A stretch of 64,000 bases of DNA from Patescibacteria group bacterium (lineage in GTDB: Bacteria; Patescibacteriota; Microgenomatia; UBA1400; PJMF01), in contig JBMORP010000006.1 of NCBI GenBank assembly GCA_049322655.1, forward strand, positions 320,410 to 384,409, in the 5' to 3' direction. The notes under the pieces are model-generated. The model saw nothing but the letters and a program-made list of their open reading frames with translations, did no database searches and was not told the DNA's origin. Each line of letters opens with the position of its first letter. The stretch's first letter is position 1. Shown one piece after another: positions 1,276-21,448 of the stretch. A program made the position numbers and the translations under genes.

Positions 1276-2289
1276 TTAAGGTAAAAACTCGTTTGTCTGA
1301 ATAAGATTCAAATCTAAATCATGTTTGATAAAGCCTTTTTCAACCATCTCTGTATAAAGCTGCAACCAACTATAATAGTTCATAGAACCAATGCTAGTAT
1401 TTGAATCTGGCTGAATTAATGGCTGACTTTTTTTCAAAATATATCTTTGATATTCTTCATTCAAATAAGAAGAATTAGTCACATATTTCATAGTATCTTT
1501 GATAGCCAATTCATTATCTTTAAAAGCTAACTCCCAACCCTTAACAGTAGCTGCCAAAAAATCACGAATTAATCCTGGGTTATTTTTTATTAATTCATTC
1601 CTAACAACAATTACATCATTATAAATATTAATTCCATATTCTTCTGGGTAAATAATGTTGTAACTTATATTCTGTTGATCAAAAAAGAATAGTTGATCTG
1701 TTCTATACAGAACATTAACATCAACTTTTTGTTGAAGGTCTTCCAACTCTTTAGTTTTAAAGTCTAAAGAAACTAAGTTAACATCTTCGAGTGATAAGCC
1801 AACCGAGTTTAAGAGCAAAGCATAAAAAATCTCTTCTTCTTTTTTGCCACCTTTATTACCCAGAGTTTTGCCAACGAAATCAGCTGGATTTTTAATTCCA
1901 GAGTCAGTTAAGGAAACTAAGGCAAAAGGAGAAAATTGATAAACAGTAGCGACAGCTGTTATTTCTGCCCCACTATCAACTGTTATCAGAAACTCTTCTG
2001 CACTCATTAGTTGAATATCTGTTCGGCCACTAATTAAGTCATCAGAGAGATTTGTTTCAAAATCAAATTCTTTAAAATTTACATCAAGGCCATTGCCACC
2101 ATAAAAACCTTGCTCTTGAGCAACAAACATTCCAGCAAATTGGGCTTGATTAACCCACTTTAACCCAACTGTAATCTCTGTTTTTCTACCAAAAAAATAA
2201 TACCAAATACTTAGCATAAACAACAAAAAAGCTAAAACCATGGATAAAGATACAGGAAAAAGTTTATTTACTTTCTTCATTGATTTCAT
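1276..2289 (-). CDS. Periplasmic solute-binding protein, NMT1/SsuA/TauA-like (ABC-type nitrate/sulfonate/bicarbonate SBP fold), probably the sensor partner of the downstream CHASE-PAS kinase
   Basis: 337 aa with an N-terminal signal/TM anchor and SBP-like composition. It sits 7 nt upstream of the sensor gene on the same strand. Confidence 0.5.
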   Translation of the reverse strand: MKSMKKVNKLFPVSLSMVLAFLLFMLSIWYYFFGRKTEITVGLKWVNQAQFAGMFVAQEQGFYGGNGLDVNFKEFDFETNLSDDLISGRTDIQLMSAEEFLITVDSGAEITAVATVYQFSPFALVSLTDSGIKNPADFVGKTLGNKGGKKEEEIFYALLLNSVGLSLEDVNLVSLDFKTKELEDLQQKVDVNVLYRTDQLFFFDQQNISYNIIYPEEYGINIYNDVIVVRNELIKNNPGLIRDFLAATVKGWELAFKDNELAIKDTMKYVTNSSYLNEEYQRYILKKSQPLIQPDSNTSIGSMNYYSWLQLYTEMVEKGFIKHDLDLNLIQTNEFLP

Positions 2290-2319: not shown

Positions 2320-4374
2320 GTGTTTAACTACATAAAAAACCCTTTTATCGTTCTTCTTTTAGTGACTATTTTTTCCAAAATAAATACTAATCTTGTTCTA
2401 GCTGCTCCTTGTGGCAATGGAGTTTGCCAGGCTTCTCAAAATGAAAACTGTCTTACTTGCTCTAACGACTGCGGAACCTGTCCTGTGCCAACTCCAACTA
2501 GCCAACCAACTCCTATTCCAACCACCTCTCCAACCAATCCCCCTCAAATTTCAGCCACACCTCAACCATCACCAACCAACACTCCATCAGCTTCAATAAC
2601 ACCACAGCCTTCACCCACTAGTTCAGGACCAACCCCAACTAGTTCTCCAACATCATCAATAGAACCCAGTAACTCAACCAACAACTTCACCACTGAAAAG
2701 ATTTATTACCCAAGCTTAAGCATTGCTAATTTCCCTAGCATCAATAATACTGGAATTATCTCTGGACAAGGTGCAACTAGTATTGAAGTAGGTACAGTTT
2801 CTAGAGTTGAGTATTCTTTTACTGAAGGTAGAGAATGGTTTTCATTACCTGTAAATAATAACCAATTTAATTTTTTAATTGATGATTTGAGCCATGGTTT
2901 ATATAGTTTTCAATTCAGAGCCATCAGTGACAAAAATATTTTTACTCCAACAAATAATTATTTAAAATATCCTCTAGCTGTTTCTTTAATTCCACCACAG
3001 GTTAGTTTTGACCAAATTAGTTATGATGAAACAAATAAAAGCAAAAATCCAAAAATTTCTGGGAAAATAGCAACTTTTTTATCTGAAGTTAGGTCTTTAG
3101 CTTATAGTTTGGATAATGGTAACAACTGGATTAGTTTACCAGCAACTAATAACTTTGATTTTAAATTACCACAATTAGAAGATGGCAATTATAATTTGAT
3201 TATTAGAGTTTTAGACACAGCAGGTAATGAAATCTTTAGCGATCCATTGGAAGTAATAATCGACACCATTCCACCTACTTTTGGTGGGATGTCTTTGACT
3301 GCTGGAAGACAAAGTCTTGATGATCTAAGTAGCAACTTACAAATTTTTCCCACTAACACCTTTGATGTTTTTGTTAGTTTAAAAGGTGGTGTTACTCAGG
3401 CTGAAATTATTATTGGCAACAAAAACTTTGCTCTGAAACCAAAGCCTGGTAACAGAATTTGGACTGCCAAAATTGATAACCTAAATCCAGGAGAAGATTT
3501 GTTAATTTTAAAAGCAAAAGATGGAGCAGACAATCAACTAACCAAAAATCTAATTAATTTAACAGTTAACCAACCTCAACCAATAATTGATGTTGAAACT
3601 AAAGAATTATTGCAAAACGTTACTGCTACTGTTTACTATTTTGATCCTATCAAAAATAAACCAACTCTTTGGGATGCAACTGCTTATGGTCAAACAAATC
3701 CACAAACCATTGATAATTACTTAGGGATGATCCTTCCTCAAGGTAAATATTATATTAAATTTGATCACCAGCAATATCCAACTGTCCAAACAAATATTTT
3801 TGAGTTGAATCAATCAACTCTTATTTCTTTTCCTGTTTATTTCAAAAAAGAACAAAATTTTATCAAAAAATTATTTTTTAAATGGTGGCCACAACAATTA
3901 AATCTAGATAATGAAGATTTAGTTTTCAAATCAACTGTGTCCGCTCAACCTGTCAATGAAAAAGATACAAAAACAAGTTCAGATTCATTTACCTTTGTTG
4001 ATGTTTTTTCTAAACAAGATTTAAATTCAGAAAATCTGCAACCCAATACTTTATTAATTTTCCTTGCACCTTGGACAGATGATTCTTTGGTCACCATTTC
4101 CTATCTAGATCAATATCTTAAAATTAATGAAAAAAATCGCTCTAAATTAAAAATTATTTTCCCTCACGAATCTGTTGGCTCTACCTTGGCTTTTATTAAT
4201 CGAGGACGTTATGATTTACCAATTTACGTTGATCCAGATGGAACAAATATTGAGCTTTTTAACCTCACTTATTTGCCGCAGGCCTTCTTGATTGACCAAA
4301 ATAAACAAATTAAAACTACAGTTTTGGGTAAAAAATCAATTTTAGAGTTAGTAGAAAAAGTCTTAGAAAACTAG
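2320..4374 (+). CDS. Large secreted/surface protein: Cys-rich N-module, Pro/Thr/Ser linker, tandem Ig-like (BIG-like) repeats, C-terminal TlpA-like thioredoxin fold lacking CxxC
   Basis: Signal peptide, then CGNGVCQASQNENCLTCSNDCGTC. A PT-rich low-complexity stretch follows. Two repeats of about 100 aa (…VSRVEYSFTEGREWFSLP… / …VRSLAYSLDNGNNWISLP…). The C-terminus aligns with the TlpA/ResA pattern (LIFLAPWTDDSL… LPQAFLIDQNKQI) but has no cysteines. Confidence 0.55.
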   Translation: MFNYIKNPFIVLLLVTIFSKINTNLVLAAPCGNGVCQASQNENCLTCSNDCGTCPVPTPTSQPTPIPTTSPTNPPQISATPQPSPTNTPSASITPQPSPTSSGPTPTSSPTSSIEPSNSTNNFTTEKIYYPSLSIANFPSINNTGIISGQGATSIEVGTVSRVEYSFTEGREWFSLPVNNNQFNFLIDDLSHGLYSFQFRAISDKNIFTPTNNYLKYPLAVSLIPPQVSFDQISYDETNKSKNPKISGKIATFLSEVRSLAYSLDNGNNWISLPATNNFDFKLPQLEDGNYNLIIRVLDTAGNEIFSDPLEVIIDTIPPTFGGMSLTAGRQSLDDLSSNLQIFPTNTFDVFVSLKGGVTQAEIIIGNKNFALKPKPGNRIWTAKIDNLNPGEDLLILKAKDGADNQLTKNLINLTVNQPQPIIDVETKELLQNVTATVYYFDPIKNKPTLWDATAYGQTNPQTIDNYLGMILPQGKYYIKFDHQQYPTVQTNIFELNQSTLISFPVYFKKEQNFIKKLFFKWWPQQLNLDNEDLVFKSTVSAQPVNEKDTKTSSDSFTFVDVFSKQDLNSENLQPNTLLIFLAPWTDDSLVTISYLDQYLKINEKNRSKLKIIFPHESVGSTLAFINRGRYDLPIYVDPDGTNIELFNLTYLPQAFLIDQNKQIKTTVLGKKSILELVEKVLEN

Positions 4375-4408: not shown

Positions 4409-5986
4409 ATGATTGCAACACTCTTTGCTGTTAATCTCCATTTCGGATTATATGTATTAGGTGCGTTGATTCTTTTTTCTATCGGCTGGTTATACCTTGA
4501 TTCATGGAAAAATACTCACAAGAATGGTTTTACTTTTTTTTATATTTTAGGTTATATCCTTCTGGCCATAGGCTGGCTAGGAAAAGCTGTTCAAAACACT
4601 ACTCCAGTTATTAATGCAACTGTAGAAATAGTTAATATTTTAGGATTAAATATTATTCTTTCGGGACTAATCATTGAACCACTTCTTAAGCCTCCGTCAC
4701 AAAAAAAAGTTCTTAAAATAAGCTTAGTTATCCCAGTTGCTCTACTAGGTTGGATATTTATTCCTCCAAAAATTTTATTATTAGCTGCAATCACTATTTT
4801 GTACTTAATCAAAATTAATCGTGGCTACCAAAAACAACTTAAATTTGCAGCTATTGGGTTCTTTTTATTAACCATTGCTTCTATTTTGGAACTACAAGAA
4901 CCACTAGTAAAAATTAGTAACAATGTAGTTTTGGAACAATTACTAACAAATTATGGAATTTTTTGGTATTTACATAAAATATTTTTATTTTTAGGAATTA
5001 CTAGCTTAATAGCCTGGAGCTGGAGCTACCTTAGATTTAGGTTTCAATCACAACTTTTTTTATCTCTAACAAGTGTGGTAGTAGTTATTTTTTTGACAAC
5101 GACAACTGGTTTCACCTGGTTGTTACTACGTAATTTAGAAACAACCATTTTAAGTGGCTTGAAAACAAATATCCATGTTTTTGAATATGCTTTAGAGAAA
5201 AATCAACTAGAACAACTAGCAATTAATAAAAGCATTGCTGCTAACTCACAGCTACCAGCTGCTATAAATAATGAGTTAACTCCAAACCAGATCTCAGAGC
5301 TAACCAGCCAGTTGATGTTAAACAATCAAGCTAGCTTCTTACACTTAATTAACTCTAATGGTGAAGTTGTTCATCGAGTAGAAAATGAGTCACGAAGTGG
5401 TGATTCTGTTGCTGATGAACCAATGATTAAAAAAGCTTTGGCCGGTTACTCACAAAGTGCAATTAGAATTGATCATAGTTTAATGACTCCTCAACTATTA
5501 ATTGAAGCGGCCTCACCGATCTTCGATATAGATGGAAAAAATGTTATCGGAGTAGTCAGTTCTGGCTTTAGTATTGATAACGCTTTTGTTGATGGTATTA
5601 AAGCTGTTACAAATCTAGAAACAACAGTTTTTGCTGATAAACAAAGAATAGCAACCACAATTACCGCCGAAGACGGAATAACTCGTTATCTGGGTACTAA
5701 TGAGAGTAATGGTGAAATTCTAAACCAAGTGTTGGACCAAGGTAATTATTTTTTAGGATCAACAAAAATTATTAATATTCCTTATTATGTCGCTTATGCC
5801 CCGCTAAAAGATTTAAATAGCCAACCAATTGGAATGTTAGCTGTTGGCTCACTTCAAACTAACTTAGAAAATTTGACTGCAGAATCAATCCGTTTAACCT
5901 TTGCAGTAAGTGCTGGCTTGATTGTAATTAGCGTTGCTCCTATCTATTTTTTTTCTAGAAAAATAGAAGAGTATTTAGTAACCTAA
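4409..5986 (+). CDS. Polytopic membrane protein with extracytoplasmic Cache-like sensor domain and no recognisable output domain
   Basis: About 8 predicted TM helices and then a roughly 250 aa soluble region with Cache-like features (…IDGKNVIGVVSSGFSIDNAFVD…YYVAYAPLKDLNSQPIGMLAVG…). It ends shortly after a final TM helix. Confidence 0.45.
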   Translation: MIATLFAVNLHFGLYVLGALILFSIGWLYLDSWKNTHKNGFTFFYILGYILLAIGWLGKAVQNTTPVINATVEIVNILGLNIILSGLIIEPLLKPPSQKKVLKISLVIPVALLGWIFIPPKILLLAAITILYLIKINRGYQKQLKFAAIGFFLLTIASILELQEPLVKISNNVVLEQLLTNYGIFWYLHKIFLFLGITSLIAWSWSYLRFRFQSQLFLSLTSVVVVIFLTTTTGFTWLLLRNLETTILSGLKTNIHVFEYALEKNQLEQLAINKSIAANSQLPAAINNELTPNQISELTSQLMLNNQASFLHLINSNGEVVHRVENESRSGDSVADEPMIKKALAGYSQSAIRIDHSLMTPQLLIEAASPIFDIDGKNVIGVVSSGFSIDNAFVDGIKAVTNLETTVFADKQRIATTITAEDGITRYLGTNESNGEILNQVLDQGNYFLGSTKIINIPYYVAYAPLKDLNSQPIGMLAVGSLQTNLENLTAESIRLTFAVSAGLIVISVAPIYFFSRKIEEYLVT

Positions 5987-5994
5987 AAACTGAT

Positions 5995-6486
5995 TTATAA
6001 ATCTTCAACAGTGACTTGGACTTTGTCAGATTCAATTTTATCTTGATTTAAGTGTTGAGAATCTTCATTTGAAGCTGGCTTAATTTTTGTTTTAACTTGC
6101 AATACTTCATGAGTATATCCAGATATAATTTCATTAACCTTTTGAACAATCTCTTTTGGAGTATAACTGGCCTTAACTAGATAAGCCACTGCCCCAGCCT
6201 CAAGTGCTGCTTCACTATCTTTTTCGCTACTACCAACATTGGTTAACATTACAACAGGAATAGACTTATGTTTTTCATCAGCCTTTAATTTTTTTAATGT
6301 CTCTAAGCCATTCAACTCTGGCATCATGACATCTAATAAAATTACTTCTGGTTTAAAATTATTTAGTTGATCAAAAAGTAAATTACCATCACTAGCAGTT
6401 ATAACTTGATGTCCATCAAGTTCAAACTTTTTTTGATACATTCTGATTAATAATGGGTCGTCATCGACAAGGAGAATTTTTGCCAT
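5995..6486 (-). CDS. Single-domain response regulator (CheY-like receiver) with a short C-terminal tail
   Basis: KILLVDDDPLL… DVMMPELNGLETLKKLK … PVVMLTNVG … AYLVKA are receiver-domain hallmarks, including the phospho-accepting Asp context. Confidence 0.8.
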   Translation of the reverse strand: MAKILLVDDDPLLIRMYQKKFELDGHQVITASDGNLLFDQLNNFKPEVILLDVMMPELNGLETLKKLKADEKHKSIPVVMLTNVGSSEKDSEAALEAGAVAYLVKASYTPKEIVQKVNEIISGYTHEVLQVKTKIKPASNEDSQHLNQDKIESDKVQVTVEDL

Positions 6487-7336: not shown

Positions 7337-7371
7337 AGTTAAGACTAATTGTAACAGCAAAACTCACTAGG

Positions 7372-8181
7372 TTGTATAATACCAACCTTACTAAGATGCC
7401 AATAACAAAAGAGCAACTTCAATATGTAGCGCTAGACGACCAAGGAGCCGGTAGGTGTGGGATTGGTGAAGCCACTTTGGGTAGCTTTCTTGGTAAAACA
7501 GGCCAGGATGAAACAACAACTCCTGAGACTGAAAAGACTTCTCAAAATTTATTTGCCAATATTATGCGTGCTGGAATAAACCCACCAGATTCCGGTAGAA
7601 CGGAGCTCCATCCTTTAGTCACTGATTTAATCAAGAAACAATTTGGCATCGAGTTCGCTGATAAAAAAATTCACTTGCTTAGACCAGACGATGTAACAGG
7701 TAAATCGCTAGTCATGGTTTTATCAACTGATTTAGATTCAGTCCCAGCTTATGTTTTAACCCAAGCTTTTGATGTCTTACATGCACCAATCAGAGACCCT
7801 TTCCCTAATCTAGAACAAGACCTAGGTTCAGCTGCTGCTCAAATATATTTTTATGCATTTTTACTAGCTTATGTAGTTGAAAATCGCTTTGAGGAACTAG
7901 GAACAAGTCGAGATGAACAAGGCAGAATTATTCCTCGTAACTTATTAAATTTCCATCCAGCTGAATGGGAAAAAGAGTTTTTTGCCGATATTTTCGGGCT
8001 AGCAACAATCAAACTCCCAGCTTCAGGAATGACGATTTTATTAGAAAGAAGAACAACCACAGAGTTTGACTCTTTGGGCAAGGAGCCCCCAGAAAATCCT
8101 GGAAGATCTTTTTTTGATGATGAATGGGGTGAACAATCACTACTATCTAAACCTGGATCATTTTTGGGGGGGAGATTTTAA
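7372..8181 (+). CDS. Hypothetical protein (co-oriented, immediately upstream of the LRR-kinase gene)
   Basis: 269 aa ORF at about 45% GC, which is similar to core genes here; no recognisable motif. Confidence 0.4.
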   Translation: MYNTNLTKMPITKEQLQYVALDDQGAGRCGIGEATLGSFLGKTGQDETTTPETEKTSQNLFANIMRAGINPPDSGRTELHPLVTDLIKKQFGIEFADKKIHLLRPDDVTGKSLVMVLSTDLDSVPAYVLTQAFDVLHAPIRDPFPNLEQDLGSAAAQIYFYAFLLAYVVENRFEELGTSRDEQGRIIPRNLLNFHPAEWEKEFFADIFGLATIKLPASGMTILLERRTTTEFDSLGKEPPENPGRSFFDDEWGEQSLLSKPGSFLGGRF

Positions 8182-8226
8182 ACCAACCAACCAAAACTCT
8201 GATTAAAAATTGATATAATCTGCTTA

Positions 8227-9429
8227 ATGAATGACTTCCCACCAACCACCACAGTTTTAGATCTATCTGCAAAAAACCTTGATCAGCTACCTCAATGGGT
8301 AACAACCTTAAAAAACTTAAAAGTTCTATTTCTATCAAATAATAATTTTAAAAAAATTCCTCAAGAAATCAACCAATTAGAAAACCTAGAATTTCTGGGA
8401 ATGAAATCATGCCAATTAACAACCTTAGAGATTAATTCAATACCAAAAAATATTAGGTGGCTAACTTTAACTGATAATAAAATTAACAAAATTCCTAAAG
8501 ACATTGGTCAACTTGAAAAGCTTGAAAAGCTACTTTTAGCTGGGAACCAAATTACAGCTATACCTGAAGAAATCATTGATTGTAAAAACCTAGCTTTACT
8601 AAGAATTTCAGCCAATAAATTAAAAAAATCACCATTTTCCCTAATTAAAAAACTGCCAAATTTGGCCTGGTATGCTGATGCTGGCAATCCTTTTTCTTTG
8701 AAAAAAACACATCAAGAAATAAATATTCCCAAAATTAATTGGGCAGATATAAAAATTAAATCAATGTTGGGAGCAAGCGCTCAAAATAAAATTTACCAAA
8801 CCTCAGTTAAAGGCCTAAAAGATGAAGTGGCAATCAAAATCTTTGGCAGTAAAATCAGCAGTGACGGTTACCCACAAGATGATTTAATCATTAGTATCTT
8901 AGCTGGCAAACATCCTAACATTATTGAGACACTTTTTGAAATAACTGACGAACCAACTAACAAATTTGCTATCGCTCTAAAAAAAATAGACAAAAAATTT
9001 TTAAACTTGGGTTTCCCTCCCAGTTTTGCTACTTGCTACCGCGATACATTTGCCGAAAATCAAAAATTTACAAGTAACTTTATTTTAAAAGTATTACAAC
9101 AGGTTAGTTCTGCTTATACACACCTACATCAACTAGGAATCATGAATGGAGATTTATATGCTCACAACATTTTAACAAAGCCAAATGGAGAAACCTACCT
9201 TGGTGATTTTGGAGCTGCTTCTTTATACGATAAAGATCTCGAACCAGAAAGAGAAGCAATTGATGTTAGAGCCTTTGGTTTTTTGATTGCAGACTTACTT
9301 GATCATACTGCAGCAGTAGAAACAGAAAATTACCACAAATTAGAACACCTCAAAAATCTTTGTTTAGCAACAGAAATAAATAAAAGACCAACTTTCAAAA
9401 AAATTAATTCAATTTTAAAAAATATTTAG
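8227..9429 (+). CDS. Leucine-rich-repeat protein fused to a eukaryote-like Ser/Thr protein kinase domain (cytoplasmic, no signal peptide)
   Basis: The N-terminal half has about 6 LRRs (LxxLxLxxNxLxxIP: LKNLKVLFLSNNNFKKIP, LTLTDNKINKIP, LLLAGNQITAIP…). The C-terminal half has a beta3 VAIK motif (VAIKIF), a catalytic loop NGDLYAHNIL (HRD-like D and N retained) and DFG (LGDFGAA). Confidence 0.65.
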   Translation: MNDFPPTTTVLDLSAKNLDQLPQWVTTLKNLKVLFLSNNNFKKIPQEINQLENLEFLGMKSCQLTTLEINSIPKNIRWLTLTDNKINKIPKDIGQLEKLEKLLLAGNQITAIPEEIIDCKNLALLRISANKLKKSPFSLIKKLPNLAWYADAGNPFSLKKTHQEINIPKINWADIKIKSMLGASAQNKIYQTSVKGLKDEVAIKIFGSKISSDGYPQDDLIISILAGKHPNIIETLFEITDEPTNKFAIALKKIDKKFLNLGFPPSFATCYRDTFAENQKFTSNFILKVLQQVSSAYTHLHQLGIMNGDLYAHNILTKPNGETYLGDFGAASLYDKDLEPEREAIDVRAFGFLIADLLDHTAAVETENYHKLEHLKNLCLATEINKRPTFKKINSILKNI

Positions 9430-9459: not shown

Positions 9460-10683
9460 CTAATCAAAAGAATAATGAATTTTATTGAACTGTTGATTGA
9501 GTTTCACCACCTCGGACTTAACAATCTGACCTCTCATCGCCTTATCCATTAATTCAGCGACTGATTTCATTTCTGCTTCTTTCATTCCTTTTCTGGTTAG
9601 TTCTGCTGTCCCGATTCTAATAAACCATCTTCCTCCAGCCAATTCATAACCTTGAAAATTAGTTGAAATATTATTAGCAATTAGGTTGCGATAAAGTTCT
9701 AGATGATGACCTTTATTATCAATAAAAACATGAGCCTGGTGATTTTCTGAATAACGACCAGTGTTGGCCTTTCTGACATCATAACCAAGTTCAACAAAGG
9801 CCTCAGCAATAGCATTGGCGTTAGCAATTGTCTGTTGGGCGTAAGCCTGACCGAACTCCTTCATTTCAAGAATTGTAGTTGATAAAGCAATTAAATTAGT
9901 CATGTGGGGAGTAGAATACAAACAACCATCAATGATCGCATTGGCCGTAACTGCCAAAGATTTATCTCTGAAAGCAATCATACCTTTGTGAGGACCAGGT
10001 AGTGTTTTATGGGTATTGGCACAAATAATATTAGCCCCTTCAACCAGAGGAGATTGAAATGTTTGACCCATAATCAACCCCATAGTATGACTGGCATCAT
10101 AGATAATAATCACTTCTTCACCTATTGCCTGTCTGATTTCTTGAAGATTGTGTGGATTGAGGTAATACGAAACATCTAGGTAAATGGCTTTAACTTTATG
10201 TTTTTTGACTTTTTCAGCAATTTTTTTAGTATCGAATTTTAAACTAGCCAAATCAAAATCAATAAAAACATGTTGCCTACCGACTTGTTTAATTAACTTT
10301 TCAGTAGCAAAGTGACCACCATCAACTAAAGCAACTGTCATGACTACATCACCAGGCTTGGTGGCAGCCAGAATGGCCGACATCATAGCATGAACACCAG
10401 ACAAAACATTTAAATTAACATCCGCTGCCCGAAGCATTTCTTTAGCTGCCTGTTTTGCTTGATCAACTAATTCCTGCACACCAGCAAATCCCAACGCTGT
10501 AAAGTCACCAAAATCTACAACTTCATTTTTTCCAGCACCCATGTAATAACGTTCACTTATTTTCGAACCTAAAAAACGAGCTGCTGTTTTTGACATTTGA
10601 TTTTCATTAGCAGTCAAATGCAAAAACTCATTGTTTCTAATTTCCTCTTTGCTAATTTGTTGGAGAAGTGGTGCGATATTCAT
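9460..10683 (-). CDS. glyA: Serine hydroxymethyltransferase family PLP enzyme (divergent GlyA-like)
   Basis: HLTANENQMS… aligns with the SHMT N-terminal motif (LIASENYTS). SHTMGLIMG and the ANTHKTLPGPHKGMI block align with the SHMT TTTHKTLRGPRGG PLP-lysine motif; 407 aa. Confidence 0.6.
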   Translation of the reverse strand: MNIAPLLQQISKEEIRNNEFLHLTANENQMSKTAARFLGSKISERYYMGAGKNEVVDFGDFTALGFAGVQELVDQAKQAAKEMLRAADVNLNVLSGVHAMMSAILAATKPGDVVMTVALVDGGHFATEKLIKQVGRQHVFIDFDLASLKFDTKKIAEKVKKHKVKAIYLDVSYYLNPHNLQEIRQAIGEEVIIIYDASHTMGLIMGQTFQSPLVEGANIICANTHKTLPGPHKGMIAFRDKSLAVTANAIIDGCLYSTPHMTNLIALSTTILEMKEFGQAYAQQTIANANAIAEAFVELGYDVRKANTGRYSENHQAHVFIDNKGHHLELYRNLIANNISTNFQGYELAGGRWFIRIGTAELTRKGMKEAEMKSVAELMDKAMRGQIVKSEVVKLNQQFNKIHYSFD

Positions 10684-10726: not shown

Positions 10727-11029
10727 CTAAAGAATAACAATTGAAAACATGAATAAAAAAATTATAAAGACAGCAAAAATTTTGACTGTTTTTGCAAATA
10801 AATTTACTGCTTGCTTTTTCTTTCCCTCAATAAAAAGCATTGATGGTTGATAAAAAAATAAAAATGCCATCACTATTACAGAAATAATTATCATAAATAA
10901 AACTATAGTCTGAGTAAAAAATGCATCTGTTTTGTCCACGAGTCGCACAGAAAAAATATATTGAGTGACAAAATTTATTAAGGTAACAACTGAAGCAAAA
11001 AAAGCATTAATTAAGGGATTTTTTGACAT
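10727..11029 (-). CDS. Small integral membrane protein (3 TM), hypothetical
   Basis: 100 aa hydrophobic ORF between glyA-like and the methyltransferase on the same strand. Confidence 0.4.
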   Translation of the reverse strand: MSKNPLINAFFASVVTLINFVTQYIFSVRLVDKTDAFFTQTIVLFMIIISVIVMAFLFFYQPSMLFIEGKKKQAVNLFAKTVKIFAVFIIFLFMFSIVIL

Positions 11030-11071: not shown

Positions 11072-12085
11072 TCACTTATTAATATTTGATTTTCTAATCA
11101 TCACCCAATTTGAGCCAAAACTCGGAGCAGGTAAACCATTAAATCTATTTGAGCTTTTTTCAGCTCTTTGTCTAGCTAAGTCCTCTTTGTCAAATCCAAC
11201 CACCTCTAAACCCAACTCCTCTACTTTCTTAAGATCTAGATAAAAATCATCAACTCCAGAACCATACATCACCAATACAGCATGATCTTTTGCATATTTT
11301 TTAAATAGTTCTAGTCTTTCGGAAACTTCATTAGGCCATGGATAACAAACCATTACATCGGCATTTTTTAGACTATCGTTTACTGCTGGACTATTTTCAT
11401 CTTCTGCCAAATGAAACTCATCATTAATTATATTGGTTTCTGCCAATGAAATATTTTTTTCTTTAAGAGATTTAATTCTGGCAGCAGCTGTAGTTGTTAG
11501 TGTTGAGTCTCTCTCAATCATCACTGTATTGAATCCCAACCTTGCTAGTACAATTCCCCAAGATCCATCTCCACCTCCAAGATCAACAGCATTTCTTCCA
11601 AGCATAATCCCTTCTTTCGCAGCCAGTGCAATTATCCCCGTCGAAACCCCAAGAGCATCAGCTCCATCTATGGCAACCCACCTTTTGTCAACTTTTCCAA
11701 CGTTACGCAAATAATTCAATTCATCATGAAAGAAAGATCCTGAAGCAATAATTTCTGCTAAAACACCTTGGCTAATCATTTCTTCAGCCTCAAATCCAGG
11801 AAATATTTCTTGATTTAATTGTTGAGTTGTATTCAATGCCCATCTAGATCTTGGAACTGCAATAAGACGATCAAAAATTTCTGAATAAGATAATCTTAAA
11901 GGAGTAAGAGTTTTTACAAGCTGGTCAATAAGTTTATTTCTTCTATTTATTCTCTCATCAAATGAAATACTCGCTTGGATGTGATCAACTCCAATTTCGG
12001 CTTCAATTTGTTCCCATTCTCTTAATGGATCAAATGTTACAGTTAGTTCTAATTCTTTAACTTGAGTTTTATTACCTTCTAGCAT
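11072..12085 (-). CDS. Class I SAM-dependent methyltransferase (PrmA/spermidine-synthase-like Rossmann motif) with an N-terminal domain of about 180 aa
   Basis: Motif I VDLGGGDGSWGIVLARLGF sits at about residue 190, and an acidic motif II-like ERD follows downstream. Confidence 0.5.
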   Translation of the reverse strand: MLEGNKTQVKELELTVTFDPLREWEQIEAEIGVDHIQASISFDERINRRNKLIDQLVKTLTPLRLSYSEIFDRLIAVPRSRWALNTTQQLNQEIFPGFEAEEMISQGVLAEIIASGSFFHDELNYLRNVGKVDKRWVAIDGADALGVSTGIIALAAKEGIMLGRNAVDLGGGDGSWGIVLARLGFNTVMIERDSTLTTTAAARIKSLKEKNISLAETNIINDEFHLAEDENSPAVNDSLKNADVMVCYPWPNEVSERLELFKKYAKDHAVLVMYGSGVDDFYLDLKKVEELGLEVVGFDKEDLARQRAEKSSNRFNGLPAPSFGSNWVMIRKSNINK

Positions 12086-12373: not shown

Positions 12374-13645
12374 CTATTCTAAGAAGTCTTGCAACTTCTT
12401 TCTGCGACTTGGATGCTTAAGCTTTCTGAGAGCCTTGGCCTCGATTTGACGAATACGCTCACGAGTGACTCCAAACTTCTTACCAACCTCTTCCAAAGTC
12501 ATGGTTTTATTGCCTTGCAAACCAAATCTCATCTTAAGCACTTTAGCTTCACGATCAGATAAAGCACTCAATACTTCCTCAATGTTTTCACGCAACATTT
12601 GTTTACTAGTGGCCTCATACGGAGAGACTTGTTTATCATCAGCAATGAAGTCACCCAAAATACTGTCATCTTCACCATCACCAACTGGAGTTTCCAAAGA
12701 AGTGGTGTTTTGAGAAATCTTCAGGATTTCCCGAACCTTTTCTGGTTCCATCTCCATTTTTTCACCAATTTCTTCTGGAGTAGGTTCACGACCTAGATCT
12801 TGCATCAAGCGGCGAGCGGTTCTCATTAACTTGTTAATGGTTTCGACCATATGTACTGGAATACGAATGGTACGAGCCTGGTCGGCAATGGAGCGAGTAA
12901 TAGCCTGACGAATCCACCAAGTAGCATAAGTTGAAAATTTAAAACCCTTAGTCCAGTCAAATTTCTCGACAGCTCTGATTAAACCTTTGTTTCCTTCTTG
13001 AATTAAATCCAAAAAAGTCATCCCACGACCAATATATTTTTTGGCAATAGACACCACCAATCTTAAGTTGGCATCGATTAATTTTTGTTTGGCTTTATCA
13101 CTGCCAGCTTCGACCTCCTGGGCCAAACGAATTTCTTGTTCACGATTTAACAAAGGAATTCGACCAATTTCCTTAAGATACATTCTGACTGGATCAGCTA
13201 CACCTGTATTTTTCAAACTACTAAGTAGATCTAATTCTTGTTGTAACTCATCGCTATCTTCTTCCTCCTTAGTTTCAGAAACAGCTTCAAACACATCAAT
13301 ATCTGCTTTAACAATATCATCATAAAAATCATCTAATTGCTCCAAATAAAGTTCTGGCTCAACAAATACATCCAAGATCTCTTCTTGGGTGACATAACCT
13401 TGTTTTTTGGCTTTTTTGAATAAAGCCTCTACTTGTTCTTGAGTTTTAGCTGGAAGTTTTTTTTCCTCTTGTTGAGGACGAAAAGTAAATGGCGTGGTGA
13501 CCCCACTATCTTCGGCTAATTCTTCAACTTGCTTGGCTGCTGTTGCTTTGGTCTCTTTAACTATTTTTTTTACTAGTTTTTTGCTAGCTTTAATATCTTT
13601 TTTTGCAGTCTCAGTTGAAGTTTTTTTGGAAGTTTTTGCGGTCAT
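12374..13645 (-). CDS. rpoD: RNA polymerase sigma-70 factor RpoD
   Basis: Regions 2-4 are conserved ([18 protein letters not shown]…[12 protein letters not shown]…; [27 protein letters not shown]). The ORF-track start at 13675 is a TTG; the first ATG (MTAKTSKK) is at 13643-13645. Confidence 0.9.
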
Positions 13646-13706
13646 AAGATGTATAATTATACACACAAAAGTCAAAGAAGCCAGAGTAGGAAAAACTTGA
13701 CAAAAA

Positions 13707-18109: not shown

Positions 18110-21100
18110 TTACTCAGCTAATTCTTCCTCTTTTTGTTCAACTAACTTAGCTCGTTTACCAGACAATCCTGCCACCAAAACTAGTGATATAAAAGTTAAA
18201 ACTACTATGGTTAAAGATGCCAACGCTATTATCTCTGGTAAATAAACAACTAATAATGAATTATCACCAACTGGAACTTGCCATAAATTAGCCCAATTAT
18301 TTAACCTTAAATGTTGAACTAGTTTTTTATTTTGCCAATCAATTCCCAACCACAAATCATCATAAGTTTGATCAATGCCAACGAAACAAGGTGCCTGTTC
18401 ACATCTATAATCAATCTTAAAAATAGAATCAAGATATTTTTTGTCTTGCTTAGTAGTCAAGTTATTAGTTAACTGACTAAAATCACTATTTTTTAAAGTA
18501 ATTTGAGCTAATCTTTTTAATGGTAATGGTTGAAGTTGAATTTTTTCTAATGCATTCATACTTTCTTTACCAAAAGATCTAGTCTCCCAGTTAATGCTAA
18601 AGATATCTCTAGCATCAGTAGTAACTTGACCTAAAGTAATAAATAAATCAAAAACATTTTTTTGTTCTAAATAATCTTCTGGCAAAATATTACGATTACT
18701 ATAATTAATAAAAAACTTAGTTCCCCGACCTTGGTAATTTCTACCAGCAACTCTCATTACATAAGAATAAGCAGCTGAAACATCTTTAAAAGTATAACCA
18801 TTACAATTTACGGCTCGATCTTTTGCCTGATAAATTACTTTATTATCAGTAATAACTGTTTCAATTTCACCAATTTCTCCAGTTACACAATTAATCGATG
18901 GATTCTTAGTTAGATCAACATTCAACGTGGGAAAAATTGAAATTAACCCCAAGGCTCTTATTTCGTGCGTATCTAAAACAACTTCTTTAGTCAACTCAGA
19001 CCAATTTGGAGTAAAAGTAAATAGTTCAGTTGTATCAAATAATAAACCACTCACCGCTTCAGTTTGATTATAATCAAGTTCTTCAGGCTTAGGGGCGTAT
19101 TCAACCTTAATCTCCTCTCCAACCTCAAACTCAATAATAGGAAAAACAGTTTCACCTTTTTGTACTATCACGCCAAAATCATTAAAGAAAACAACCATTT
19201 CATTGGGTATAGTTTCATCTGATAAGGAAAACTCAAAATTTTCTAATTTTGCTAAATCTATTTGCTGTTTCTCTGTTAATAAAACATAGTGAGGAAAATC
19301 AACTGTCACCTTTCGATCTTGATAGCTAATAGTGGCTGGCAGCAAGTATTGATCGTCAGTCAAAGCAGGGATGGTTAACTGATAATTATCTTGCTTAAAA
19401 TACTTCCATACCTTGGCATTATTTTCCTCAAAAATAACATCTGTTAAACGGTGAGACATTAAATCTGCAAAAGGGTAAACTAAATCTGCTTGATCAGTTA
19501 GCACATAGTCTCCAATTTGTTGATAAATAAAGTCTGTTCTCACTCTTTCGGTATCACCAGTAACAAAACTCAATTTTGCTGGTACCAAAACCTCAGCTTC
19601 TTTATTGGGTGCTTGTCGTTCATAAATTGTTAAAAAATCTTGTTGCCAAACCTGTTTAAAACCAGCCTTAGTTAATAGTTCTTTTGTCTGCTCAAGATCA
19701 TGATCACGACTAGGATCAACTCTAGTTTCGTCAATAATTACTAAATCAACATTATATTTTCTGGTCATTAGTGAAAATTGTTCTGTGTCAGCAGCGTCTA
19801 AAACATGTTTTAGTTCATAGTAAAAGAAATCAGATGTCTCTACCCATCGGTCAGAATCACGATTTAAAAAAGCCTGAGGAAAACCAAAAAAATAAAAACC
19901 CATACCTTGATAACCATTCTCTTCAGCCAAAAATTGCCAATCATAGAGCTCCCAACCAGCGTGAGTAAACTGAGGCAGCTGCAAAATTCTCAAATCTTTA
20001 TCACGAGTTTTTAAATAGTCAAACATAACCCAGTATTGATCTGGGTACTTAATTTGTAATTTTTCACTAATAAAATGTCCTTGAAATGATGGCCAAGCAA
20101 CTACAAAAGGACTAATATAAATAGTAAAAAAAATTAGTACTGCTAAAAATCGAGCAAAAAATTTTAATTTTTGCAGATTAACTAAAAATAAAACAGTTTT
20201 TTCTACTACAGTAATAAATAAAATAACTGACACAAAAGAATAGAGAATGGAAAGTTTGGTGAATGGATTACGAAAAGCTTCTCTAAAAGTTGGAGATTGG
20301 TAAAGTTGGTCTAGTATTCTATTGGTTGGCAATAAATCAATCCAAACGAACACCAAACAAAAAATATAGAACAATAAAACAGCCCAACGTCGCCAACTTT
20401 TATCTTGAGCAAAAATAGTCACCACAAAACCAAACAAAGTAATCACCCCAAGAGTTTTCATTAAATAGATTACAATTGGTTGATTTAAATGATCTTGCCA
20501 TTCATTAAAGATTAATTCATGTTTTTTAGTAGAAAAATTATAATCCTGCCAGGTAAAAAGATAGTGCTTGCCACTAGTTAAATTTTCAATCGTGCCAGCC
20601 TCACGAATACTCCACACTGATTCTGGAGCAAATAATTGGTTGTCTCGACTTTCTTGAACGTAGTGAGCATTGTGAAAACTATAATAAAGATTAGGTAAAA
20701 TCCAATAAGAATTCGCAAAAAAAGTAATTAAACCCACCAAAAAACCATATTGAATAGCTTTAACTATCTTATGTTTTTGTAAGGTAAGAAAAAAAGCATA
20801 AAGCAAAGAAAATATCACAGCTAAATAAAAAACAGTTTGAGTGTGAGCACTAGGAGCAATTAAAAACTGTAATAATAAAAAATAAAGAATAGACTTAGCA
20901 GTAATTTTTTCTAGTAAAAAGTGAATACTTAATAATAGAAACGGTAAAAAAGCAAACTGCACCATAAACATTTCAAAACTGATGTAGAACTGCTGTAAGG
21001 TGAGAATGTGAAGTAAGTAAAAAACAGCTCCTAAACTGGCCAACCATGATTGCCAAAACTTGTTTTTATCATTTAACCAAACACATTTTAGGTAAAAATA

Positions 21101-21448
21101 AATACCAACTCCACCAACTAAAAACATTAAAAAGATAAACACTAATCTTAAGTTAGCCACTGGTACAAATAAACTTAACAAAAAAATCAATGGTAAACGA
21201 AAAATCTCTGCTAGTTGCCCTTGAGCAGATGGAGCACCCAAACTTTGGTGTTCACTCCAAGCTCCAAAAAAAACTTGCCTAGCATACTCAATTAGGTCAA
21301 ATTCAGGATGAACATTATCCCAGCCAGAATAAAACCAACCCCATTTGATATTAACTAAGGCCGTAGTGACAGCAGTAGCAATTACTACTAATAATGGCAG
21401 CGAATTCCACAAATTCTTTATGGTAAAAATTTTCAAAAAATTTTTCAA
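18110..21448 (-). CDS. Large polytopic membrane protein (about 14 TM, then an extracytoplasmic domain of about 500 aa and a C-terminal TM), possibly a GT-C/YfhO-like glycosyltransferase
   Basis: 1112 aa. The architecture resembles YfhO/ArnT-like GT-C enzymes, but the family assignment is inference only. Confidence 0.5.
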   Translation of the reverse strand: MKNFLKIFTIKNLWNSLPLLVVIATAVTTALVNIKWGWFYSGWDNVHPEFDLIEYARQVFFGAWSEHQSLGAPSAQGQLAEIFRLPLIFLLSLFVPVANLRLVFIFLMFLVGGVGIYFYLKCVWLNDKNKFWQSWLASLGAVFYLLHILTLQQFYISFEMFMVQFAFLPFLLLSIHFLLEKITAKSILYFLLLQFLIAPSAHTQTVFYLAVIFSLLYAFFLTLQKHKIVKAIQYGFLVGLITFFANSYWILPNLYYSFHNAHYVQESRDNQLFAPESVWSIREAGTIENLTSGKHYLFTWQDYNFSTKKHELIFNEWQDHLNQPIVIYLMKTLGVITLFGFVVTIFAQDKSWRRWAVLLFYIFCLVFVWIDLLPTNRILDQLYQSPTFREAFRNPFTKLSILYSFVSVILFITVVEKTVLFLVNLQKLKFFARFLAVLIFFTIYISPFVVAWPSFQGHFISEKLQIKYPDQYWVMFDYLKTRDKDLRILQLPQFTHAGWELYDWQFLAEENGYQGMGFYFFGFPQAFLNRDSDRWVETSDFFYYELKHVLDAADTEQFSLMTRKYNVDLVIIDETRVDPSRDHDLEQTKELLTKAGFKQVWQQDFLTIYERQAPNKEAEVLVPAKLSFVTGDTERVRTDFIYQQIGDYVLTDQADLVYPFADLMSHRLTDVIFEENNAKVWKYFKQDNYQLTIPALTDDQYLLPATISYQDRKVTVDFPHYVLLTEKQQIDLAKLENFEFSLSDETIPNEMVVFFNDFGVIVQKGETVFPIIEFEVGEEIKVEYAPKPEELDYNQTEAVSGLLFDTTELFTFTPNWSELTKEVVLDTHEIRALGLISIFPTLNVDLTKNPSINCVTGEIGEIETVITDNKVIYQAKDRAVNCNGYTFKDVSAAYSYVMRVAGRNYQGRGTKFFINYSNRNILPEDYLEQKNVFDLFITLGQVTTDARDIFSINWETRSFGKESMNALEKIQLQPLPLKRLAQITLKNSDFSQLTNNLTTKQDKKYLDSIFKIDYRCEQAPCFVGIDQTYDDLWLGIDWQNKKLVQHLRLNNWANLWQVPVGDNSLLVVYLPEIIALASLTIVVLTFISLVLVAGLSGKRAKLVEQKEEELAE

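Follow-up and report, generated by a model that had tools for sequence, protein, structure and literature searches.

The locus examined here raises the question of what a protein that joins leucine-rich repeats (LRRs) to a eukaryote-like protein kinase (ePK) does in a low-GC Patescibacteria (CPR) genome, and whether the gene directly upstream is its partner. The window, a stretch of 64,000 nucleotides, carries two open reading frames on the forward strand, one called mechanically at 7372..8181 (+; 269 aa, TTG start) and the kinase gene at 8227..9429 (+; 400 aa, ATG start), with a gap of 45 nt between them (8182..8226, +). These coordinates and this spacing agree with a first-pass annotation of the DNA. 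The true start of the upstream frame is most likely the ATG at 7396, giving a gene of 7396..8181 (+) and a protein of 261 aa, the same as the NCBI call. The TTG at 7372 falls within a promoter-like site 5′ of this first gene (GTAACA-18 nt-TATAAT, 7351..7380, +), which is no more than a 10/12 match to the consensus; nine promoter-like sites were found in the region against 7.6 expected from shuffled sequence, so there is no excess of them. Neither a Shine-Dalgarno-like purine run nor a terminator-like site was found in the 45 nt gap. There is an extended -10-like box, TGATATAAT (8211..8219, +), ending 7 nt 5′ of the kinase ATG. The same box reads TGCTATAAT in the locus L002, which is uninformative because L002 is 98 % identical to the window in this region.

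The first part of the 400 aa protein is an LRR domain (residues 8-160; 8248..8706, +) of six repeats, starting at residues 8, 31, 54, 76, 99, and 122 with a period of 22-23 residues, followed at residue 146 by a C-terminal cap, LAWYADAGNPF. The approximately six canonical LRRs proposed earlier are thus recovered, and LRR profiles match above the Pfam cut-offs (LRR_8, E 3.8e-17 and 62.3 bits, cut-off 27; LRR_14, E 2e-15). The closest solved LRRs are those of Leptospira LIC11098 (E 6e-65) and SHOC-2. No signal peptide or transmembrane segment was found, the maximum Kyte-Doolittle mean over 19 residues being 0.95 and the N-terminus not being hydrophobic, in keeping with the earlier statement that a signal peptide is lacking; the protein is soluble and cytoplasmic. 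Between the end of the cap, near residue 160, and the start of the kinase domain at 175 lies a linker of ~15 residues, and the AF2 model of the whole protein (pLDDT 94.7, pTM 0.93) packs the LRR solenoid on the kinase in one confident arrangement. By analogy, and as modelled, the solenoid would probably supply recognition of a substrate or ligand.

The second part is a compact kinase domain (residues 175-400, about 226 aa; 8749..9426, +). The first-pass annotation had named a fold other than that of a protein kinase in this half as the result that would count against it; the AF2 model, Foldseek, and profile searches all return the protein kinase fold. The domain scores above the Pfam cut-offs for Pkinase (38.3 bits, cut-off 31.7) and PK_Tyr_Ser-Thr (36.6 bits, cut-off 23.1), the top Foldseek matches in the PDB are all protein kinases (BRAF, FGFR, and similar; E 3e-12, target-normalized TM 0.55-0.64), and a family profile of the domain matches 2,284 solved kinases, FGFR1 being the best (1.8e-16). 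The window protein has all the catalytic residues cited previously, K204, D309, N314, and DFG, and the family shows no variation in them. The beta3 lysine lies in a VAIK motif (8827..8838, +), of which A202 and K204 do not vary among 36 sequences; all eight of the commonest variants listed for this position among 120 homologues read xAxK. The catalytic loop, N307-G-D309-L-Y-A-H-N314 (9145..9168, +), has the family consensus HGDLYAHN, opening with HGD in 115 of the 120 homologues and with NGD in five, the window protein being of the NGD type. The DFG motif (D327-F328-G329; 9205..9213, +) is present in 120/120, and in the 36-sequence alignment D309, N314, and DFG do not vary. The alphaF aspartate (D346) and the alphaH-alphaI arginine (R387) are also kept. 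A cytoplasmic fusion of LRRs to an ePK-like kinase with its catalytic core intact is therefore borne out, and the domain would be a catalytically competent phosphotransferase.

Other elements of the domain are reduced. Conservation of the glycine loop and of the APE region had been put forward as checks, and neither gave the usual motif: the loop is degenerate, GASAQN rather than GxGxxG, with the second and third glycines lost (GxGxxG occurs in 82/120 relatives and a glycine-poor loop in 32/120), and no recognizable APE motif is found in the window protein. D218 and D219, candidates for the acidic residue that would pair with the beta3 lysine, lie within the predicted alphaC helix (216-226), where the family has DE (78/120) or DD (28/120). 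The HRD arginine is absent, the motif reading NGD (HGD in the family). Only 12 residues separate DFG from the start of alphaF; the DFG-to-alphaF segment spans 19 residues (36 in PKA) and the alphaF-to-Arg segment 41 (60 in PKA), the latter suggesting that alphaG is missing. In ePK, pknB, and HRK, phosphorylation of the loop is associated with an extended activation loop together with the HRD arginine (Kannan et al., PMC1821047). Because the window protein has no HRD arginine and both segments are short, switching by activation-loop phosphorylation seems unlikely by analogy with those kinases and on the modelled structure.

The protein belongs to the BLRK family, named by Kannan, Taylor, Zhai, Venter & Manning (2007, PLoS Biol 5:e17; PMC1821047). 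The HMM of Dataset S2 bears the description 'Bacterial Leucine Rich Repeat Kinase'; Dataset S1 lists Shewanella oneidensis SO4016 and Burkholderia proteins (PMC1821047). The window protein aligns end to end with SO4016 (BLASTP, 38 % identity over 413 columns, E 2e-100) and with Burkholderia ZP_00213921 (36 %, E 6e-99). The supplement gives a cysteine before the conserved alphaH-alphaI arginine in 98 % of BLRK (PMC1821047); C379 is found in 116/120 homologues and the window protein carries both C379 and R387-P388. It also shares the motifs TSDG, PPSxxTCxRD, (H)GDLYAHN, DFGAA, (D/E)VRAFG, and C...RP, and the architecture and size class, with N-terminal LRRs and a C-terminal ePK-cluster kinase in one polypeptide of ~400-460 aa (median of 120 relatives 431.5 aa, against 400 aa here). 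It differs from the family in its glycine loop (GASAQN against GEGASG), in NGD for HGD, in lacking an N-terminal segment of ~30 residues found in 117/120 relatives, and in coming from a CPR/Patescibacteria genome.

The architecture had been described as rare in bacteria, which does not hold. Relatives make up more than 2,319 protein clusters at 90 % identity, with at least 598 confirmed matches in a collection of one genome per species, and extend over hundreds of species in at least eight phylum-level groups, including free-living soil, water, and marine bacteria. A 2005 survey had already noted an LRR-kinase in Pseudomonas aeruginosa, and NCBI lists a protein 100 % identical to that of the window as 'leucine-rich repeat-containing protein kinase family protein'. 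Since the family was named in 2007 and is now found in hundreds of bacterial species, the architecture is ordinary. Literature on BLRK and SO4016 was limited, among the sources found, to the 2007 definition, the 2005 mention, and a network list with SO_4016. As no experiment on any member was found there, we infer both the activity and the substrate class of BLRK.

Comparison with better-known kinases sets the family apart. With PknB-type (Hanks) kinases the window protein shares the ePK-type fold, the K, D, N, and DFG residues, the alphaF aspartate, and the alphaH-alphaI arginine, but it has no HRD arginine, catalytic-loop lysine, or APE motif, its activation segment is ~17 residues and its alphaF-to-Arg segment ~19 residues shorter than in PKA, and there is no transmembrane segment, PASTA, or other extracellular sensor domain. 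NCBIfam PknB-type models gave partial matches only (23 bits, cut-off 450), and the top 60 solved structures matched by the family profile include no PknB. Roco/LRRK2 proteins likewise have cytoplasmic SHOC-2/LRRK-like LRRs of 23 residues, N-terminal to the enzymatic domain; the window protein differs in having no Roc GTPase or COR domain (no Pfam match), for which the short interval between the LRR cap and the kinase leaves no room. Plant LRR receptor kinases and IRAK/Pelle also combine LRRs and a kinase on one polypeptide, and the solved kinases nearest to the family profile are of the TK/TKL groups (FGFR1, TIE2, ABL, and BRAF). In contrast to the plant receptors, no signal peptide or transmembrane helix is present, and the LRRs are therefore not extracellular; the non-RD character and minimal C-lobe of the window kinase are further differences from both.

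The genomic setting is one of housekeeping genes. Flanking genes in the window encode RpoD, methionine aminopeptidase, an M29 peptidase, RmlC, and a response regulator. When the three neighbours on each side were clustered for 81 loci, none was conserved across phyla, and clusters were bound to lineages: 10-11 loci mainly of Sulfuricurvum and other Campylobacterota MAGs, 6-7 loci belonging to a single clade of Bacteroidia, and four Paraburkholderia loci. The BLRK gene thus appears to stand alone in most bacteria. The best explanation of the kinase gene, probable as a whole, is that it encodes a soluble BLRK member with a reduced ePK-type kinase that would be active, that the gene mostly stands alone, and that the LRRs probably recognize a substrate or ligand.

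The upstream gene had been reported as having no recognizable domain. By sequence this stands, with no domain found using Pfam, NCBIfam, PADLOC, or PHROGs; by structure it does not, as an LMW-PTP/ArsC-like fold is confidently predicted for the core (residues 1-200). The tail (residues 203-261) is predicted to be disordered (pLDDT below 50). At the beta1-alpha1 junction there is a P-loop-like segment, D14-D-Q-G17-A-G19-R20-C21 (D-X5-R-C; 7435..7458, +), where phosphatases have their C-X5-R-(S/T) signature. In LMW-PTPs a C-X5-R(S/T) P-loop with the nucleophilic cysteine lies at the beta1-alpha1 loop, and a D-loop has been described (PMC7772506). Across 19 sequences of the upstream family G17, G19, and R20 do not vary; D stands at position 14 in 15/19 and C in 4/19, those four reading C-G-E-G-x-G-R-S. 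D134-P135 (7795..7800, +) is invariant in 19/19 and aligns with the ADP of Corynebacterium ArsC1′, making D134, from this alignment, a candidate for the general-acid aspartate of the LMW-PTP D-loop. The disordered tail contains a short conserved motif, RSFFDDEWGE (8104..8133, +), in which R237, S238, F239, F240, D242, W244, G245, and E246 are invariant in six close homologues.

The likeness to LMW-PTP/ArsC proteins thus comprises a glycine-rich loop with an invariant arginine at the beta1-alpha1 junction, an invariant DP, and, in four of the 19 relatives, a canonical C-X5-R-S loop. The differences are the replacement of the nucleophilic cysteine by aspartate, seen in most members, and of the Ser/Thr after the arginine by cysteine, which is a tendency of the family, an extra invariant S-G-R motif, and, in the window protein, an inserted disordered loop (37-49) and the 60-residue disordered tail with its RSFFDDEWGE motif. 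The literature searched yielded no earlier case of an Asp-type LMW-PTP loop. Pfam LMWPc had no match at E <= 10 in any of the 19 members, and the family profile reached ArsC (3t38) at E 0.076 and LMW-PTP (4egs) at E 0.18 in the PDB. The family is very small, with 18 representatives among 1.84 billion proteins; extension by profile search added no new members and gave no match with a Pfam domain.

Kinase genes beside phosphatase genes are common in bacteria, Wzc-Wzb being an example. The two genes may be read as a kinase-phosphatase or kinase-regulator module, expressed as one transcript, in which the LMW-PTP-fold protein would reverse the action of BLRK, serve as its substrate, or dock on it; this reading is somewhat unlikely, while being the one that weighs most among the alternatives. 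The genes are on the same strand, 45-48 nt apart, no terminator-like site separates them, and the upstream protein has a predicted phosphatase-type fold with a conserved P-loop arginine and the invariant DP. The upstream gene lies directly 5′ of the kinase gene in four loci of one narrow CPR clade (the window, L002, L090, and L089), where the pair has been kept despite protein divergence to about 60-66 % identity, and it accompanies all known members (P0001-P0003) of the BLRK subclade with the short N-terminus and NGD. The Wzc-Wzb precedent is an analogy: there too a kinase gene adjoins a gene for an LMW-PTP fold, but Wzc is a P-loop BY-kinase, of a fold unrelated to ePKs, whereas the kinase here is of the ePK type and the pairing is limited to one small clade.

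Against the module, L003, L004, and L005 carry homologues of the upstream gene with no kinase gene inside 5 kb, and L086 and L093 carry them with none downstream. No relative of the upstream gene was found near any of 80 distant BLRK loci (tblastn, E <= 10; family HMM, E <= 10), and no phosphatase family recurs beside BLRK genes across phyla. The earlier designation of the upstream gene as a possible partner is thus supported by its adjacency in four loci and weakened by five kinase-less loci and by its absence at the 80 distant ones. Moreover, the four loci represent only two lineages, and branching in a neighbour-joining tree of the upstream proteins is poorly supported (bootstrap 21-49); given this, inheritance by descent is enough to explain the adjacency. 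The extended -10-like box within the gap and the different GC content of the two genes (39.8 % upstream, 31.3 % in the kinase gene) also speak against a single unit. A further locus, L088, was left out of the tally because it may be either a deletion variant or an assembly chimera, matching L089 at 100 % for 1,131 nt and then breaking 34 codons into the kinase gene. With the pair in four loci and five upstream-gene loci without a kinase, a kinase-phosphatase module, like the co-transcription named in the first-pass annotation, is possible but unproven, and whether or not the pair forms one, the pathway of BLRK may or may not be that of the upstream protein.

A narrower form of the module, improbable as it stands, is one of reversible phosphorylation with a rearranged D-X5-R-C active site and a kinase that may act on tyrosine. 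In the D-X5-R-C loop a cysteine follows the arginine instead of occupying the first P-loop position. The suggestion of tyrosine comes from the catalytic loop LYAH, which is nearer to LAAR of tyrosine kinases than to LKPE of Ser/Thr kinases, and from the best solved-structure matches of the kinase, which are tyrosine kinases. If true, a tyrosine module would give a first functional handle on BLRK and a new catalytic variant of the LMW-PTP fold.

The reduced features of the kinase domain invite the explanation that it is a pseudokinase or scaffold, in which the degenerate glycine loop and the change of H to N abolish catalysis and the protein acts via LRR-mediated binding. The second and third glycines are indeed lost, the catalytic loop opens with NGD instead of HGD, and the N-terminal segment of most relatives is missing. 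The explanation is nevertheless quite improbable: K204, D309, N314, D327, and D346 are all kept, the kinase fold is well formed in the AF2 model, and the glycine-poor loop is itself a conserved subfamily signature (GESAQN and GESPSS among the 32), which suggests a working variant and not decay. A glycine-poor loop (32/120) and NGD (5/120) are minority states of the family, shared by the window protein, and could reduce or change activity.

There is similarly little probability that the domain phosphorylates small molecules, like its APH/choline-kinase, Kdo-kinase, or Bud32-type relatives. The H/N-G-D-L-x-x-x-N loop, without the lysine of Ser/Thr kinases, resembles that of small-molecule or atypical kinases, there are weak partial Pfam/NCBIfam matches to Kdo kinase (PF06293, E 3e-4) and Bud32, and some relatives are labelled Bud32 by JGI. 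The alphaF motif and the alphaH-alphaI arginine, however, form a substrate-lobe network specific to ePK/pknB (Kannan et al., PMC1821047), of which the window protein retains DVRAFG and RP; both by profile and by fold it comes closest to TK/TKL protein kinases and not to CAK or Kdo kinases; and LRRs are typically protein-binding (2005 survey).

The first-pass annotation had also pointed to host-interaction effectors and anti-phage sensors. Both roles are unsupported, because the local context is one of housekeeping genes and no neighbour is conserved over 80 loci; no secretion signal was found and the PADLOC matches are partial. An anti-phage sensor, in which the LRRs would detect a phage protein and the kinase trigger a response, is very improbable. 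LRR sensors do serve in immunity elsewhere, which is suggestive by analogy, and there are weak partial kinase-domain matches to PADLOC mad6 (9e-11), PD-T4-6, and MkoA, and a weak match to mad2 (3.6e-8) in a methyltransferase-like gene at 11072..12085. These matches are limited to generic kinase and methyltransferase cores (52-208 of the 659 positions in the mad6 profile), and the remaining components of MADS, Mokosh, and PD-T4-6 are absent from the neighbourhood (PADLOC-DB 2.0). Synteny is stable within Paraburkholderia, Sulfuricurvum, and one Bacteroidia clade with no recurring defence gene, and literature linking the LRR-kinase architecture to defence was not found. A MADS system was rejected on the partial mad6/mad2 matches, the absent components, and the housekeeping neighbours. 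Phage origin was likewise rejected: in PHROGs the kinase matched only LRR and generic kinase entries, and the upstream gene matched none.

A secreted effector would fit the attachment of CPR bacteria to host cells, as well as partial matches of the LRR part to the Xanthomonas type III effectors XopAC (1e-16), XopAE, and XopL, but these matches cover the LRRs only and fall far below the cut-offs (61 bits, cut-off 450), and with no signal peptide, no adjacent secretion-system genes, and a family widespread in free-living bacteria an effector is very improbable.

The reading of the kinase as a soluble BLRK member makes it of little discovery value in itself, the family being known, the protein named, and the architecture widespread. 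As a minimal non-RD kinase joined rigidly to LRRs, it offers a model for a solenoid replacing the usual docking elements. What is new here is the unannotated upstream gene, with its predicted tyrosine-phosphatase/arsenate-reductase fold and altered active-site loop. If the upstream protein is active, it would represent a well-studied catalytic loop in a naturally altered form, and if it works with the kinase, it would provide the first testable hypothesis for BLRK function.

The gene at 8227..9429 on the forward strand (ATG start) encodes a 400-aa protein and is separated from the gene upstream, which ends at 8181, by 45 nt (8182..8226); both ORFs and the gap are as the first-pass annotation had described them. 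Matches of the protein to the Pfam LRR and kinase models are far beyond chance, passing the curated cut-offs for LRR_8 (E 3.8e-17), LRR_14 (E 2e-15), Pkinase (38.3 bits against 31.7), and PK_Tyr_Ser-Thr (36.6 against 23.1). The proposed LRR periodicity is therefore borne out, with six repeats starting at residues 8, 31, 54, 76, 99, and 122 and a cap, LAWYADAGNPF, at 146. The catalytic residues that had been recognized are also present, at K204 (VAIK), D309 and N314 (NGDLYAHN), and D327-F328-G329, with coordinates checked by translation. None of these vary across 36 aligned relatives and DFG is found in 120 out of 120 homologues. Hydropathy shows no membrane segment and, in agreement with the annotation, no signal peptide. 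In this protein GASAQN replaces GxGxxG in the glycine loop, the APE motif is absent, and the HRD position is occupied by NGD. The protein shares three peculiarities with its two closest homologues: all three lack an N-terminal segment of about 30 residues present in 117 of 120 relatives, all three start the catalytic loop with NGD (5 out of 120 across the family), and all three belong to the minority with a glycine-poor loop (32 out of 120).

An identical protein (100 %) is already in NCBI as a 'leucine-rich repeat-containing protein kinase family protein', on a 652-kb contig of a Patescibacteria-group MAG. BLRK is one of 20 protein-kinase-like families in Kannan, Taylor, Zhai, Venter, and Manning 2007 (PMC1821047); the supplementary HMM, built in 2005 from 36 sequences, is described as 'Bacterial Leucine Rich Repeat Kinase', and the accompanying FASTA file includes Shewanella oneidensis SO4016 and several Burkholderia proteins (PMC1821047). 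At the sequence level, membership of the family is established by end-to-end alignments, at 38 % identity to SO4016 (E 2e-100) and 36 % to a Burkholderia member (E 6e-99), together with family-characteristic residues including C379, the equivalent of a Cys reported as 98 % conserved in BLRK (PMC1821047). The view that LRR-kinase architectures are rare in bacteria does not stand. Clusters (90 % identity) with the full architecture number more than 2,319, and in a collection with each species represented by a single genome at least 598 BLRK matches were confirmed; the 80 loci retained are from Burkholderia/Paraburkholderia, Shewanella, Vibrio, Bacteroidota, Campylobacterota, Cyanobacteria, Leptospiraceae, Acidimicrobiia, and Kaiserbacteria. 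An LRR-containing Ser/Thr kinase of Pseudomonas aeruginosa was noted already in 2005. No experimental work on any BLRK member was found in the literature.

The AF2 model from the family alignment covers the whole two-domain chain (pLDDT 94.7, pTM 0.93) and predicts one confident arrangement of the LRR and kinase domains. Foldseek against the PDB matched eukaryote-type protein kinases (BRAF, FGFR2/3, EphA3, ABL; E ~1e-11), as expected from the kinase fold claimed for the C-terminal half; taken by itself, that half finds no close relative among solved structures (FGFR1 best, E 2e-5). A profile of 12 kinase domains matches 2,284 solved kinases, led by FGFR1 (1.8e-16), TIE2, TYK2, ABL, CDK12, and BRAF, with PknB absent from the best 60 of the 2,284. 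The best solved structures for this family profile are thus tyrosine kinases (FGFR1, TIE2, TYK2, ABL), not PknB-type kinases, and the BLRK catalytic loop D-L-Y-A-H-N (9145..9168) aligns with D-L-A-A-R-N of tyrosine kinases.

The kinase domain spans only about 226 residues. Relative to PKA (literature numbering D184, D220, and R280, the latter two cited in PMC1821047), the DFG Asp and the alphaF Asp are 19 rather than 36 residues apart, the alphaF Asp and the conserved Arg are 41 rather than 60 apart, and the AF2 model shows no more than three helices after DFG (342-358, 367-379, 390-399). Based on these spacings and helices, we infer a very short activation segment, and alphaG is probably absent. 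The BLRK catalytic loop, H/N-G-D-L-Y-A-H-N, has neither the HRD arginine nor a Lys at the Ser/Thr-kinase Lys position. Since an extended activation loop and the HRD arginine have been tied to regulation via loop phosphorylation (Kannan et al., PMC1821047), BLRK kinases would not be switched in this way. The LRR solenoid probably supplies substrate or ligand recognition beyond the capacity of the reduced C-lobe.

For the upstream gene, the mechanical call (7372..8181, forward strand, 269 aa) begins at a TTG that falls within a promoter-like GTAACA-18-TATAAT. The true start is most likely the ATG at 7396, giving 261 aa rather than 269, and NCBI annotates the same start. The first-pass annotation saw no recognizable domain here, which holds for sequence matches, none being found in Pfam, NCBIfam, PADLOC, or PHROGs, but not for the predicted fold. 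The family is very small: 1.84 billion proteins yielded 18 representatives. On 19 sequences, AF2 modelled a confident core (residues 1-200, mostly pLDDT 87-97) that includes a disordered loop at 37-49, and 60 disordered C-terminal residues. [quoted passage not shown] They are also the two best PDB matches of the family profile (ArsC, E 0.076; LMW-PTP, E 0.18), a sequence link that is only suggestive. The bridge to the canonical loop comes from within the family, where 4 of the 19 members carry C-G-E-G-x-G-R-S. In the other 15, the window protein among them (P-loop segment, 7435..7458), Asp takes the Cys position; in the ArsC alignment it faces the catalytic Cys of C-V-H-N-A-G-R-S, and the invariant DP faces ADP. 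Ser follows the Arg in each of the four Cys-type members, and Cys follows it in 11 out of 15 Asp-type members (alignment A4; Fisher p 0.004, without correction for phylogeny). It looks as if the Cys has shifted within the P-loop, the nucleophile-position and post-Arg residues co-varying. Invariant across the 19 sequences are G17, G19, R20, G60, S66-G67-R68, D134-P135, and P180. An LMW-PTP is defined by its fold and Cys nucleophile (PMC7772506); the upstream protein has the fold, as predicted, but lacks the Cys nucleophile and does not match the Pfam model. It is therefore filed, on its modelled fold, as a divergent relative of the LMW-PTP/ArsC superfamily and not classed as a phosphatase. A distant relative forms residues 321-447 of the 450-aa protein P0133, behind an RmlD/epimerase-type domain; this could be a genuine fusion or an artefact of gene calling where the contig ends.

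The suggestion that the upstream protein is a partner of the kinase is supported in part. A same-strand pair with a gap of 45-48 nt occurs at four loci. Besides the window these are L002, whose kinase is 88 % identical, L090, at 66 % for the kinase and 60 % for the upstream protein, and L089, where the homologue P0122 is followed by a BLRK N-terminus, 65 % identical over 79 aa up to the contig end. However, no kinase adjoins the homologues in L003, L004, L005, L086, and L093, and no relative of the upstream gene was found at 80 distant BLRK loci. Both a single gain and several losses of the pair are compatible with the upstream-protein tree. A kinase adjoining a phosphatase-fold protein is suggestive of a functional module, but adjacency inherited by descent in one small clade fits the evidence equally, and a module is considered rather unlikely. 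The 45-nt gap has no terminator-like site, nor a Shine-Dalgarno-like sequence before the kinase ATG. An extended -10-like box, TGATATAAT (8211..8219), ends 7 nt 5′ of this ATG; L002, the only relative available there, is 98 % identical and thus uninformative on conservation. Transcription of the kinase gene from a promoter of its own, as a leaderless mRNA, is possible, as is co-transcription of the pair. The upstream gene (7396..8181) has 39.8 % GC and the kinase gene (8227..9429) 31.3 %, against a window mean of 34.9 %; both are inside the 1-kb range of the window (26-45 %), although the step between adjacent genes is noticeable.

Locus L088 (1140..1688) is from a sister sample of L089 (1028..1264). 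The contigs share 1,131 nt at 100 % identity and part company 34 codons inside the BLRK gene, after which L088 continues in frame into an 18x-aa protein, Nudix-hydrolase-like by eye (no Pfam match on record), and then DUF4256; this is either a strain-level kinase deletion or an assembly chimera. The 18x-aa and DUF4256 genes recur beside the LMW-PTP-fold gene, in differing orientations, in L004 (3823..4930), L005 (3823..4930), and L088 (1140..2238). L003 has DUF4256 alone (1474..2028), about 3 kb from the LMW-PTP-fold gene, and the 64-kb window has no DUF4256 homologue. A 101-aa membrane-protein gene adjoins the LMW-PTP-fold gene in L003 (4615..4920) and has a homologue 3′ of the kinase in the window (10727..11029); rpoD is near both (L003, 10299..10780; window, 12374..13675). 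L003 and the window appear to represent one region of the chromosome that has undergone rearrangement between relatives.

The kinase is surrounded by housekeeping genes, not by a defence island or mobile element. Its flanking genes encode NMT1-like, Ig-domain surface, and Cache-domain membrane proteins, a response regulator, a divergent SHMT-like PLP enzyme, a small membrane protein, a methyltransferase-like protein, RpoD, methionine aminopeptidase, an M29 peptidase, and RmlC. When three neighbours per side were clustered at 81 BLRK loci, synteny was confined to lineages and no neighbour family was common to several phyla; in most bacteria the BLRK gene is solitary. The host-interaction effector role once proposed finds no support in these surroundings or neighbours, nor does the anti-phage role, PADLOC giving only partial matches to the kinase core.

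Among the neighbours, the SHMT-like enzyme (9460..10683, reverse strand) is convergent with the kinase, an arrangement kept in L002, and scores below the curated cut-offs for serine hydroxymethyltransferase (200 bits; cut-off 335) and for fluorothreonine transaldolase (235 bits; cut-off 650). Beyond it lie a gene for a 100-aa membrane protein and the methyltransferase-like gene (11072..12085). At 4409..5986 (forward), a membrane protein carries dCache/sCache sensor domains and several hydrophobic segments in its N-terminal part, but no recognizable output domain; convergent with it is a response-regulator receiver that stands alone and has an acidic tail of 45 residues (5995..6486, reverse). 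A place on the cell surface is probable for the 684-aa product of 2320..4374 (forward), which combines a signal-like N-terminus with a long linker rich in Pro, Thr, and Ser and a bacterial Ig-like (Big_13) domain. Two reverse-strand ORFs, 18110..21448 (1,112 aa) and 21602..22459 (285 aa), have no Pfam match at E <= 0.001.

The kinase adds a new and slightly atypical member to a family that has been recognized since 2007; it is already annotated as such and is in itself of low interest. The fold assignment of the upstream protein and its unusual D-X5-R-C loop add modest value, providing a cheap, testable hypothesis for an otherwise uncharacterized kinase family.
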